Position numbers and translations under genes: made by a program. The notes beneath the pieces were generated by a model, which was not told the origin of the DNA, ran no database searches, and was given only the letters and a program-made list of their open reading frames with translations. From contig JAHJLF010000016.1 in NCBI GenBank assembly GCA_018821925.1, forward strand, positions 19,255 through 83,254: DNA of 64,000 nucleotides, given 5' to 3'. Below, in pieces: positions 7,987 to 10,822 of this stretch. The number at the start of each line of letters is the position of its first letter. Within the stretch, counting starts at the first letter, position 1. Source of the stretch: Candidatus Edwardsbacteria bacterium. GTDB taxonomy: Bacteria > Edwardsbacteria > AC1 > EtOH8.

Positions 7987-8015
7987 GGGCCCCGCCGGAA
8001 GGCGGGGCTCTTGGC
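7987..8015 (+). repeat. Copy 1 of a GCCCCGC-loop-GCGGGGCTCTTGG hairpin repeat (also at 10368 and 10796)
   Basis: GGGCCCCGCCGGAAGGCGGGGCTCTTGGC. Same core and same 3' tail as the two other copies, all on the + strand. Confidence 0.6.
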
Positions 8016-8062
8016 TTACATTTGTCTATGGGTTATGTCACGATAGCAGGTGGTGTGAATTG

Positions 8063-9034
8063 TTAGGTCGCCCTTTTCTCTAAATGCTTCGGGTGTACAT
8101 ACCCAATAAGCAAATAACGATAAACTTCCAAGAGGTCGTTGAAAAGAAAATAGTAATCATCGGCCGTTATGGGTGGGTGCGAAAATATGCCAAGTCGGCT
8201 TTCAGGATGGAAAGACGCAATTCTCCTTTCGTAGTCCTCCTCAAAATACTTCTCAAGTCGGTCTATATCATAAAAAGCATTGTGAATATAATTTGCGGCA
8301 TCCTTCGCAGTTGGTTGTTGATACCCTGTATCTCTCAGTTTACGCAAAACCATACGGTACGAAGCTTCCATTGAGATGTAGAGGGTGTTGGTCGCTTCTT
8401 CGAAAAACTGATAGTGAAAATGTAACATGCCAGCCTTGATTAGCGTTGAGAGACCTCTGAGCACAATTGCATCGTTTGGGCAAATTGCATCGTATAACTG
8501 CTGGGCCATCGTATAGTCAATTCCTTTGTCGCGAAGGTCATAATCTCGACCCCCGACCACCGGCGGTAGAGGAATGTCGGTTGCGTGGCGATAGGAATTC
8601 AGTGCTGGAACGGCGTAACCAGTAGGAGTTTTATCTGGCTCGGTTAGTTTCTCAATCAGAATCGGCCTCACGTGTTCGATTGCATAGGTAATTGAGTCAG
8701 GAGGTTGTGAACACACCAAGGAAATATCAAATGGGTAAGGATAGAAGGCCGAATAGCTTATTTCTCGGTCAACCGCGAGCATCAGTGCTCCGTAGATTCT
8801 TATCTCCGATACAGAAAGTAACTGAACTTCGGAGCATGATTCGTCATCACCCCGGTCGTGATATTGGACGAGGCTGAAACACAGATCTCTACTAGCGACA
8901 TACAAACAATTCGAAAAAGAAACGCTCATCGCCGGGTAGATCCCCATCGGAGAAAGAATTCTCGCGATATGGGTAGGTTTTTCTCTATGTTCGCAGGTGC
9001 GAATGTGCGGTTTCATTCTTATATTGCGAAACAA
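8063..9034 (-). CDS. Hypothetical protein (323 aa), last gene of the low-GC toxin-antitoxin-like operon
   Basis: Long ORF, same strand as and 35 nt downstream of the RelE-like gene. AT-richer than the flanking DNA. No recognisable motif. Confidence 0.5.
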   Translation of the reverse strand: MFRNIRMKPHIRTCEHREKPTHIARILSPMGIYPAMSVSFSNCLYVASRDLCFSLVQYHDRGDDESCSEVQLLSVSEIRIYGALMLAVDREISYSAFYPYPFDISLVCSQPPDSITYAIEHVRPILIEKLTEPDKTPTGYAVPALNSYRHATDIPLPPVVGGRDYDLRDKGIDYTMAQQLYDAICPNDAIVLRGLSTLIKAGMLHFHYQFFEEATNTLYISMEASYRMVLRKLRDTGYQQPTAKDAANYIHNAFYDIDRLEKYFEEDYERRIASFHPESRLGIFSHPPITADDYYFLFNDLLEVYRYLLIGYVHPKHLEKRAT

Positions 9035-9069
9035 CAGTTACTTTTTTGATACTTGTATTTTGGATTAAC

Positions 9070-9450
9070 TTAAACGCTTTCGAAATAACGGCGTTTTATT
9101 CTTCCCTTGTCGCATTCAGTGCTTTGTTTCTCTTTAAAGTATATCTCAACCAATTCAATGCGGTCTTCATCTTTTAAGTAAGCATAGATCAGGCGCAACC
9201 CCGTTTGAGCCCCCTTGCCCTTAAGCGCTTTGCAGGCAAATTTCCTGACTTTGTATACTGGCGGGTTTTCAAATCCTAAGCCGGGAATCCTGAATATACC
9301 TTTATTGTCAATGTTGCACTTATGGTATGAATAAATTGAATAATTGATAAGATTATCTAAATCATCTTCCAACGTCCTGAATCGTTTTGTCAATTGTTTT
9401 TTGTCCCGTTTAAATTCAGGGTGTTCGAACACTTCCCTGAACTTAGCCAT
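9070..9450 (-). CDS. RelE/ParE-superfamily-like toxin candidate (126 aa)
   Basis: The C-terminal segment GLRLIYAYLKDEDRIELVEIYFKEKQ resembles the conserved beta-strand core of RelE/ParE/YoeB toxins. The gene starts 1 nt after the stop of the upstream antitoxin-like gene. Confidence 0.5.
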   Translation of the reverse strand: MAKFREVFEHPEFKRDKKQLTKRFRTLEDDLDNLINYSIYSYHKCNIDNKGIFRIPGLGFENPPVYKVRKFACKALKGKGAQTGLRLIYAYLKDEDRIELVEIYFKEKQSTECDKGRIKRRYFESV

Positions 9451-9451
9451 A

Positions 9452-10228
9452 TTATGTCCTCACCGAATATTCCGGCGTTCGATAAAAAACCGCCTCATAA
9501 TCAATGGGCTTGCTTTCTTCGGCAGTGATCCAGGGAACATCGCGGTGGGAGTAATCGCTTAATTCCGAGGCGGTTTTATCTGATAATCTATTCAAAACAT
9601 CATTAATCACTTCAATTTCATGGGCTTTAAACTGCCGCAGATCAAAACTTTTCAACGGCAAATACTTTCTTTGGGGATACTGGAAATAACTTGATTTAAC
9701 CAACTCTATTTCTCCTTTGCTGACCATATCGTCGACCACTTTTTTAAACTCCACGGGCGTGGGCCCGTATTTATTTTTGATATAGGTGGCGCCGATAAGC
9801 TGTTCTTCATATTTTTCATAAAAATTAAAATCAATAAAATATAAAAGCTTATAAATGACGGTTTCGCCTATGTTTGGCTTGGAACCGACTTTATTAAGAA
9901 TATAAAGCAAAGCTTGCTTGAGCTTATTCAGATTTTTTTGAGGTACGCTGATGCGTATTTCTTCTACTTGTTTTTCCGGCCTCCTTTCGCTTTGAATCAA
10001 TATTTTAGGCGTTTTGCCTTCGTCTAAAAGTTCCTCAACGTTCAAATTGAAGAATTTTGCCAAACAAACCAGTTCGGAAGCGGTTGCCTTGCGCTTTCCC
10101 TTTTCCATCAACGTTACCGCAGGCCGGGCTATGCCCAGCGCCTTGGCCAGCGTTTCCTGGTTGATGTTATTGGCTTTGCGCAATTGCTGGACCCGCTTGC
10201 CTAACAAGATATCTATGTTCTCGTTCAT
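9452..10228 (-). CDS. HTH_XRE DNA-binding domain fused to a DUF4065 (Panacea/SocA-like) antitoxin domain
   Basis: N-terminus LLGKRVQQLRKANNINQETLAKALGIARPAVTLMEKGKR is a Cro/C1-type HTH. The C-terminal domain has the KLLYFIDF...GATYIKNKYGPTP pattern of DUF4065. Confidence 0.6.
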   Translation of the reverse strand: MNENIDILLGKRVQQLRKANNINQETLAKALGIARPAVTLMEKGKRKATASELVCLAKFFNLNVEELLDEGKTPKILIQSERRPEKQVEEIRISVPQKNLNKLKQALLYILNKVGSKPNIGETVIYKLLYFIDFNFYEKYEEQLIGATYIKNKYGPTPVEFKKVVDDMVSKGEIELVKSSYFQYPQRKYLPLKSFDLRQFKAHEIEVINDVLNRLSDKTASELSDYSHRDVPWITAEESKPIDYEAVFYRTPEYSVRT

Positions 10229-10367
10229 CTTTTTAATTCCCTTAGTTCGTCCACATTATAACAAATGTATGATAATATGTCAAGTGGTTGTTAGATAAAA
10301 CCACATATTTTTATTAACACAGCGGGCCAGAGCTACCGGAACCGTTGCCCAACCAATTAACGAGAAC

Positions 10368-10395
10368 GAGCCCCGCAATTGCGGGGCTCTTGGCG
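10368..10395 (+). repeat. Copy 2 of the GCCCCGC hairpin repeat
   Basis: GAGCCCCGCAATTGCGGGGCTCTTGGCG, in the promoter region of the minus-strand TA operon. Confidence 0.6.
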
Positions 10396-10438
10396 TTAAT
10401 GATCTCACCTTAAGCGGAATGTCAGGCAAGCTGATCGG

Positions 10439-10750
10439 TCATAATTTCTCTACATATTCCATCCGTTCCTTATCGGACTCCGGCAGCAACTCCCTTTTCA
10501 ATATCTCCTGATCCCCTTTGCCTATTTTATAAGCCAGATCATCCAGATTCCCAGTTCTATGAAATTCCGCAATCTCGTCCGGATTAAGCTCGACAATCCG
10601 GTTGTGCATGGCTATTCCCCCGCAGGTGACGTCGATCACCAGGTCCTTGACCCTGTCGCATTTACACACCGAGTAATAATTGGAGCTTCTATAGATCTCA
10701 TGCAATTTCATATCGCTGTTCCCGCCATTCCTCTGATCTTTCCGCACCAT
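10439..10750 (-). CDS. Hypothetical small protein (103 aa; may start at the internal MKLHEIY)
   Basis: ORF bracketed by hairpin repeat copies 2 and 3. Cys-containing (CKCD, TCGG). No motif recognised. Confidence 0.35.
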   Translation of the reverse strand: MVRKDQRNGGNSDMKLHEIYRSSNYYSVCKCDRVKDLVIDVTCGGIAMHNRIVELNPDEIAEFHRTGNLDDLAYKIGKGDQEILKRELLPESDKERMEYVEKL

Positions 10751-10795
10751 TGCCGGATGATATTTAATAATTGGTCTTTTTGTTTATCAAATATT

Positions 10796-10822
10796 TAGCC
10801 CCGCAACTGCGGGGCTCTTTGT
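10796..10822 (+). repeat. Copy 3 of the GCCCCGC hairpin repeat
   Basis: TAGCCCCGCAACTGCGGGGCTCTTTG, followed by a second nested hairpin at 10843-10890 (GCTCACCTG...CAGGTGAGC). Confidence 0.6.

Follow-up and report, generated by a model that had tools for sequence, protein, structure and literature searches.

A PanA/PanT-type toxin-antitoxin pair, predicted from sequence, beside a variable gene slot that holds a HEPN-fold protein of an undescribed family in Candidatus Edwardsbacteria

INTRODUCTION

In toxin-antitoxin (TA) modules of the PanA/PanT type, the antitoxin carries a DUF4065 (Panacea) domain, in many members behind an N-terminal helix-turn-helix (HTH), and the two genes form a tight bicistron conserved across species. 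Kurata et al. (2022, PMC8832971) reported 343 HTH-PanA proteins, found ParE-domain toxins among the PanT partners, and applied as their criterion two genes with a spacer of at most 100 nucleotides (nt), kept in at least two species. Accessory third genes are allowed for in the Panacea literature (PMC8832971), and Panacea has been considered as a possible sensor in multidomain antitoxins (Ernits et al. 2023, PMC10440598). Here we describe a locus in a 64,000-nt stretch of the Candidatus Edwardsbacteria contig JAHJLF010000016.1 (the window, 64 kb in all), where a gene for an HTH-Panacea protein (A), a gene for a small protein (B) and a gene for a two-domain protein (C) lie side by side on the minus strand next to clpB. 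In our judgment the locus is probably a self-contained PanA/PanT pair adjoining a recombination-prone slot, bounded by clpB, which here holds the HEPN protein C.

For C, the nearest described proteins are HEPN RNases of phage defense. HepS (PMC13043305), DARNA (bioRxiv 10.64898/2026.02.22.705581) and ApeA (bioRxiv 10.64898/2026.01.26.701840) are phage-triggered anticodon nucleases, and in all three accessory domains or oligomeric states keep the HEPN site inactive until a phage cue is received (PMC13043305; bioRxiv 10.64898/2026.02.22.705581; 10.64898/2026.01.26.701840).

RESULTS

A and B as a conserved HTH-Panacea/toxin pair

Gene A (9452 to 10228, minus strand) encodes a polypeptide of 258 amino acids (aa) with two Pfam domains: HTH_3 at residues 14 to 67 (E = 1e-10) and SocA_Panacea/DUF4065 (PF13274) at residues 126 to 233 (E = 1e-18; score 68.7 bits, cutoff 25.7). 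NCBIfam and PADLOC matched only the HTH part. The fusion of an HTH to DUF4065, which the initial annotation had proposed from the letters of the sequence, is therefore present as described. Gene B (9070 to 9450, minus strand; 126 aa) follows after a spacer of 1 nt. We retrieved 11 independent genomic contexts of B homologs, all that were found, from several phyla. In every one of them (11/11), a gene with the HTH_3+SocA_Panacea architecture lies directly upstream of the B homolog. In the Acidobacteria metagenome-assembled genomes (MAGs) L062-64 the pair is free-standing, with no third gene and a convergent gene afterwards.

The upstream region is conserved as well. The A-B(-C) unit has a sigma-70 promoter (10255 to 10283, minus strand) that matches TTGACA-17-TATAAT at 12 of 12 positions and carries an extended -10 TG. 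Its hexamers can be recognized in 11/11 aligned loci, and only the most divergent of these have substitutions in them. Abutting the -35 box is a candidate operator, TGT-N11-ACA (10289 to 10305, minus strand), whose two triplets are invariant upstream of the 11 independent A-B loci, as is an ACA within the spacer. This dyad has the expected look of an autoregulatory operator for a dimeric XRE-type HTH, and the HTH of A may bind it. Because the pair, the promoter and the candidate operator are all conserved, we assign A-B, from sequence, to the type II TA modules of the PanA/PanT type, as a new member of an already known kind. Indeed, A has the Panacea domain, the spacer is 1 nt, and the pair is kept across multiple species.

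B itself was harder to place. In Pfam, NCBIfam, PADLOC and PHROGs no RelE/ParE hidden Markov model (HMM) matched it; the sole PHROGs match was phrog_5869 (function not described), at E = 6e-5, and when 37 members of the B family were scanned against Pfam, one reached ParE_toxin at a nonsignificant E of 0.15. Searches of PDB sequences returned Vibrio cholerae HigB-2; phmmer with B alone gave E = 0.009 and the family profile gave E = 5.5e-4, the profile match spanning only some 40 residues in the core of the beta-sheet. From an alignment of 37 sequences, AlphaFold2 gave a model (predicted local distance difference test score, pLDDT, 84.5) with the topology beta-alpha-alpha-beta-beta-beta, with the two N-terminal helices on an antiparallel beta-sheet that define the RelE/ParE fold. 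That topology is common to HigB-2 and the ribosome-dependent mRNA-cleaving toxins (mRNases) RelE, YoeB and YafQ (PDB 5ja9, 5mje, 4ls4, 1wmi, 4q2u), and B shares with HigB-2 the core G-K-G...G-x-R-x-I-Y...Y-x-K. In contrast, structural-alignment identity to this group is 12 to 19%, the N-terminal helical hairpin is longer in B, which also has a helix at the C terminus, and the partner of B is an HTH-Panacea protein, not HigA, RelB or YefM. The predicted structure makes B a protein of the RelE/ParE fold and probably a member of the mRNase branch.

RelE/ParE is a common fold of the PanA/PanT (NetFlax) network, and in this B agrees with it; the difference is that the B family (more than 400 sequences) has no Pfam or NCBIfam model, so that the link runs through the fold and the weak HigB-2 match. 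The label RelE/ParE-like that was first given to B stands as far as predicted fold and HigB-2 similarity are concerned; on the side of HMMs it found no match anywhere. The broader reading of the two genes as an antitoxin with a RelE/ParE-like toxin holds up, on the domain matches of A, the fold of B and the conservation of the pair in all 11 contexts. As it lacks a curated model, a toxin family of this kind would escape HMM-based annotation. We did not find the B family in IMG/VR viral contigs, and tblastn of B against plasmid records gave no match.

A replaceable segment between B and clpB

The gene order in the window is Fer4, peptidase, D, A, B, C, clpB, where D is a small open reading frame (ORF). 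Three relatives with the same neighborhood show what changes in it. L049, at 84 to 88% nucleotide identity to the window, has Fer4, D, A, B, a 171-aa ORF with two transmembrane segments, and clpB. L050, at 88 to 92%, has Fer4, A, B, a lipoprotein-like ORF and clpB, with no D, no peptidase gene and no C. L052, a TA06 MAG at 79 to 81%, has A, B, a 59-aa ORF, a DUF7379 gene, a 383-aa ORF and clpB. Homology of the window to all three stops at about 9033 to 9083 and resumes at about 7943 to 8013. Because the flank homology stops and resumes around it, we read 7945 to 9033 as a replaceable cargo segment between two conserved flanks, B on one side and clpB (5386 to 7962, plus strand) on the other.

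Chromosomal hotspots for defense and accessory genes are flanked by core genes, and among close relatives their flanks are conserved while the cargo differs. The present locus departs from this pattern in that the flank on one side is a TA module and not a housekeeping gene; the slot contains neither an integrase nor a transposase.

More distant A-B modules also carry other genes. A same-strand gene follows B in 10 of the 11 modules, and one module has none. The families of these genes differ, with MmeI-type restriction-modification (R-M) enzymes and DUF7379 each recurring once. In distant modules, B is followed by MmeI-type R-M enzymes (twice), a HATPase_c_3 protein, a PDDEXK_1 nuclease after a 3-nt spacer or a GATase_4 protein after a 13-nt spacer. 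The tightest coupling of A-B to known defense genes is seen in L054/L055 (4326 to 7098), where a Gabija-like pair, encoding a 557-aa OLD-TOPRIM AAA ATPase and a 370-aa UvrD helicase, shares 47 nt with the 3' end of the B homolog. Across several lineages the cargo either overlaps B or lies 3, 13, 18, 35 or 36 nt from it. A terminator (hairpin plus T-run) stands right after B in L047 (about 4380 to 4420) and L052 (about 4375 to 4415), and none is present after B in the window, L049, L050 or L051. As judged from these elements, the transcriptional sealing of A-B from the downstream gene differs between lineages.

In the window, the cargo is C. Its ORF runs on the minus strand from a TTG at 9034 down to 8063 (323 aa), which leaves 35 nt between B and C. 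The most likely start is the ATG at 9016 (M7), since homologs begin there; this gives 8063 to 9016, 317 aa and a B-C spacer of 53 nt. The three minus-strand ORFs of 258, 126 and 323 aa, with spacers of 1 and 35 nt, were thus correctly called at the outset. In the spacer itself (9017 to 9069, minus strand), homology to L050 persists over 9033 to 9069, and neither a terminator nor a promoter was found on the minus strand.

C as a member of an undescribed HEPN family

C had been noted as matching no recognized family, and we found no match for it in Pfam, NCBIfam, PADLOC or PHROGs. Moreover, no Pfam or PADLOC match was obtained for its 34 close family members or for 97 diverse ones, the models covered including the Pfam HEPN_* families and ApeA, AbiV, AbiD/F and PD-T4-2 of PADLOC, and PDB sequences gave no match to C alone or to its family profile. 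The protein is indeed without a named family; its fold, however, can be assigned. The AlphaFold2 model (34 sequences) is confident, with a pLDDT of 86.6 and a predicted template modeling score (pTM) of 0.86. It shows two domains, a beta/alpha domain at about residues 10 to 170 (about 165 aa) and a helical domain at about residues 174 to 322 (numbered here and below from the TTG). The latter is the all-alpha bundle of the HEPN fold. Structure comparison of C matched HI0074, YutE, TTHA0636 and Csm6, with Las1, AbiV and LsoA lower in the list. Foldseek gave no significant match for C nor, against PDB, for its N-terminal domain, which has no detectable relative.

Conservation in the family points to the HEPN motif. 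Across 97 members, 23 to 53% identical to C, H276 is the sole strictly invariant residue (97/97); R193 is kept in 96 and R271 in 90 (93%), with W in place of R271 in the other 7. R271-x4-H276 agrees with the Rx4-6H motif of HEPN proteins and in the model lies, as expected, between helices 259 to 275 and 291 to 310, although the local pLDDT there is only 56 to 66. The HEPN half is the better conserved of the two: on average the commonest residue of a column has a frequency of 0.45 there, compared with 0.29 in the N-terminal half, as would suit a conserved effector coupled to a regulatory domain that varies more. A homology search returned 57 close relatives, none of them named or carrying a Pfam domain. 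In a profile search of 1.84 billion representatives we found 509 clusters (50% identity), 368 of them at E <= 1e-10 and nearly all of 280 to 330 aa with the same architecture. Sequence and model together place C in a family of predicted HEPN RNases that has not been described before and whose N-terminal domain is new.

C resembles HepS, DARNA, ApeA, AbiV and AbiD/F in its HEPN fold with a conserved Rx4H, in being a solo gene without a dedicated antitoxin and in its accessory or mobile context, and its extra domain may serve for gating. PADLOC, Pfam and PDB sequence searches found no similarity between these proteins and C. The architectures differ too: HepS is a bare HEPN protein of less than 250 aa and DARNA has an N-terminal HEPN domain followed by a helical C-terminal domain, whereas C has its beta/alpha domain of about 165 aa at the N terminus. 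The HEPN-MNT systems (HepT/MntA, type VII; PDB 7ae2, 5yep, 8xdj) show 6 to 10% structural-alignment identity to C, and C is more than twice as long through its N-terminal domain. No MNT nucleotidyltransferase gene lies next to C in the window or next to its homologs, and the 25 most frequent Pfam families among the neighbors of C homologs include no nucleotidyltransferase family.

C homologs apart from A and B

We assembled 45 loci with C homologs (35 nonredundant) from metagenome and genome collections. By tblastn, none of the 45 has an A-, B- or D-like gene, although many of these contigs are short, which makes the absence weaker than the count suggests. An all-versus-all comparison of the neighboring ORFs (blastp and phmmer) gave no recurrent partner; only serine recombinases recur. 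The neighboring ORFs are rich in resolvase, transposase, rve, IS200 and phage-integrase domains and also in toxin or defense domains (PIN_8, HEPN_Toprim_N, AAA_15/21). Among 185,579 species genomes, only 5 have relatives of C, scattered over phyla: an alphaproteobacterial MAG, Chromohalobacter, Marinicella, Geothrix and Cognatilysobacter. Searches of phage and plasmid records with tblastn found no relatives of C. Cultured isolates with C-family genes are Chromohalobacter sp. 296-RDG (L042), Geothrix campi SG10 (L044) and Cognatilysobacter segetis 17J68-2 (L045).

The initial annotation had taken A, B and C for a possible three-gene TA or abortive-infection module and had set co-occurrence of the three genes in related genomes as one of its tests. 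Such co-occurrence was not seen. The 45 C loci lack A and B, the close relatives carry unrelated genes in the place of C, the pair stands alone in L062-64, and L047 and L052 have a terminator directly after B. Furthermore, the 11 A-B contexts carry 10 downstream gene sets and, in one case, none. By this test the three-gene idea is refuted.

Hairpins, flanking genes and base composition

All three occurrences of GCCCCGC-N(2-9)-GCGGGGC in the 64-kb window (7989 to 8008, 10370 to 10387 and 10798 to 10815) fall at this locus, where 0.02 would be expected by chance. The copies fold at -18 to -31 kcal/mol (z -4 to -6), and each follows closely on the 3' end of a minus-strand gene that is not always present, in turn C, D and the peptidase gene. 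Hairpin 1 (7985 to 8012) is a convergent, terminator-like structure between clpB and C, with fold energies of -31.5 kcal/mol on the plus strand and -22.1 on the minus strand (z -5.8 and -4.3). Hairpin 2 (10367 to 10390; -26.4 kcal/mol, z -6.0) lies between D and the A promoter, is likewise terminator-like, was called as a minus-strand terminator and is conserved in L049. Hairpin 3 (10797 to 10820; -17.7 kcal/mol, z -4.1) separates the peptidase gene from D and repeats 23 nt of hairpin 2 in direct orientation, at 96% identity. ORF D is accordingly bracketed by two near-identical hairpins. The relatives have equivalents at the D/A and cargo/clpB junctions, with one before clpB in L049, L050 and L052. 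We read the hairpins as intrinsic-terminator-type elements rather than island borders. The repeats that were thought to bracket the three genes are real, but there are three copies and not two, and the middle one lies between A and D, so the outer pair does not delimit a three-gene unit.

Two other identities for the hairpins or the locus were considered and rejected. Integron attC-like cassette sites or mobile-element ends were set aside by inspection: there is no integrase or transposase ORF, the elements have a simple GC stem with A/T-rich flanks, as terminators typically do, and hairpins 1 and 2 keep their intergenic places in the relatives whichever cargo is present. An RNA antitoxin or known noncoding RNA, as in type III HEPN/AbiF-like systems, was rejected, as neither meaningful tandem repeats nor an Rfam match turned up at the locus.

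The three genes are AT-richer than clpB, as first observed: GC content is 41% in A, 39% in B and 45% in C, compared with 58.5% in clpB and 52% in the whole window, and GC content at third codon positions (GC3) is 0.44 to 0.48 compared with 0.77 in clpB. The Fer4 gene is at 54.7% GC and GC3 0.685. The peptidase gene had been named, with clpB, as a flank of the AT-richer DNA; as a core flank it does not hold. This Peptidase_C69 gene (11023 to 12777, minus strand; E = 1.8e-58) has a GC content of 48.7% and a GC3 of 0.47, where the core neighbors have 0.69 to 0.77, and the syntenic relatives L049 and L050 lack it. For these reasons it reads as accessory rather than core, and looks like a separate insertion between the Fer4 gene and D.

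ORF D (10439 to 10750, minus strand; 103 aa, with the likely true start at M14, 10711) lies upstream of A, and no family of Pfam, NCBIfam, PADLOC or PHROGs matches it. L049 has D, and L050, the distant A-B loci and all C-homolog loci lack it. We rejected it as a true third component of the TA module on account of its absence from L050 and the distant A-B loci, and because a terminator-like hairpin and a promoter separate it from A.

Several other parts of the window drew attention. Upstream of clpB, a 140-aa ORF with a signal peptide (4829 to 5251, plus strand) contains the duplicated blocks FLPRPIVIPVDS... and IIICKK..TGPSIPPTPIDR.TLT. After a recN-like gene, a low-GC patch (about 38%) encodes an ORF6N protein with a weak PLD-like C terminus (35004 to 35930, plus strand), beside which lies a gene for a Laminin_G/3-keto-disaccharide-hydrolase-like protein (36176 to 37189, plus strand). 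A 433-aa transglutaminase-core protein (45915 to 47216, minus strand) sits in a patch of about 37% GC. After a serS-like gene, a patch of about 31% GC (about 59100 to 60345, plus strand) encodes a pentapeptide-repeat protein with an unassigned C-terminal domain of about 170 aa.

DISCUSSION

The locus suggests the following working model. B would be a toxin with the RelE fold that, when free, most likely acts as a ribosome-dependent endonuclease, cutting mRNA on the ribosome. A would neutralize it by direct binding through the Panacea domain, the linker or both, and A dimers would repress the promoter at 10283 to 10255 by binding TGT-N11-ACA through their XRE-type HTH. The slot 3' of B is filled in different lineages by different accessory or defense genes. 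In the window, C is probably read through from the autoregulated promoter of A, as neither a terminator nor a promoter was found between B and C, and transcription probably ends at hairpin 1 on the clpB side. C would then most likely act alone, as an RNase toxin or abortive-infection effector: dimerization of the HEPN domains would form its active site, and the N-terminal domain, by analogy with HepS, DARNA and ApeA, may gate that site or sense the trigger.

Four points weigh against this reading. B lacks any RelE/ParE HMM match, the model of C is at its least confident (pLDDT 56 to 66) around Rx4H, many of the C-homolog contigs are too short to make the absence of A and B as telling as the number 45, and the tight spacing of cargo after B leaves room for a functional link between A-B and the cargo. 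The last point leads to an account in which A-B serves as a portable head, regulatory or sensory, for any effector gene placed 3' of it. On a cue sensed by Panacea (phage infection, for example), the HTH of A would release the shared promoter, B would be freed, or both, and the cargo would be expressed as well: C in the window, and elsewhere an MmeI-type R-M enzyme, a PDDEXK nuclease or a Gabija-like pair. C would then be a functional but exchangeable third component. In favor of this account, B is followed on the same strand by another gene in 10 of 11 modules, in many cases a nuclease or defense gene and often with an overlap or a gap of 3 to 36 nt; the conserved promoter and operator and the missing terminator after B in the window, L049, L050 and L051 also speak for it. 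However, L047 and L052 seal the pair with an intrinsic terminator, L062-64 have no third gene at all, and cargos such as the lipoprotein-like ORF and GATase_4 are not obvious effectors. Moreover, TA modules are generally enriched in defense islands, where adjacency alone is expected, and the sample is 11 contexts. We consider this account unlikely. A more specific proposal, that A-B is a portable control cassette licensing a swappable effector and that C founds a new abortive-infection RNase family with an infection-sensing N-terminal domain, we hold to be decidedly unlikely.

Two further explanations concern C alone. It could be the dedicated third component of a tripartite TA system, either as a second toxin that A neutralizes or as an accessory of B. 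It lies on the same strand, 35 to 53 nt away and with no intervening terminator, and 25 accessory third-gene clusters have been described with PanAT pairs (Kurata et al., PMC8832971). Against this stand the 0/45 count of C-homolog loci with an A- or B-like gene, the lack of C in L049 and L050, whose A-B pairs are 88 to 92% identical, and the stand-alone architecture of the C family, which has no recurrent neighbor; we therefore judge a dedicated role extremely improbable. Alternatively, the helical domain could be a noncatalytic HEPN-like bundle that binds a nucleotide or other ligand or serves as a scaffold, as the C-terminal domain does in aminoglycoside nucleotidyltransferases; C would then be an accessory gene with no part in toxicity or defense. 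The nonsignificant Foldseek result, the low confidence around Rx4H and the W that replaces R271 in 7 of 97 members would be compatible with such a role. Yet an H that is invariant in 97 diverse members together with an R kept in 93% is the pattern typical of catalytic HEPN RNases, and the family occurs among mobile elements and toxin or defense genes; a noncatalytic C appears to us very unlikely. The reading of a self-contained PanA/PanT pair beside an exchangeable slot is the one that we retain.

As a TA module, the A-B pair adds little, being one more PanA/PanT combination with a RelE-fold toxin. Its position could be of more consequence: the predicted TA module here forms the fixed edge of a variable slot in which Gabija-like, R-M, nuclease and HEPN genes are exchanged, and the locus opens to direct test whether Panacea antitoxins control neighboring defense genes. 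The C family, with about 509 clusters at 50% identity, is invisible to current defense and domain catalogs. By the example of HepS, DARNA and ApeA, it is a concrete candidate for a new defense system, and Chromohalobacter sp. 296-RDG, Geothrix campi SG10 and Cognatilysobacter segetis offer three cultured hosts for it.

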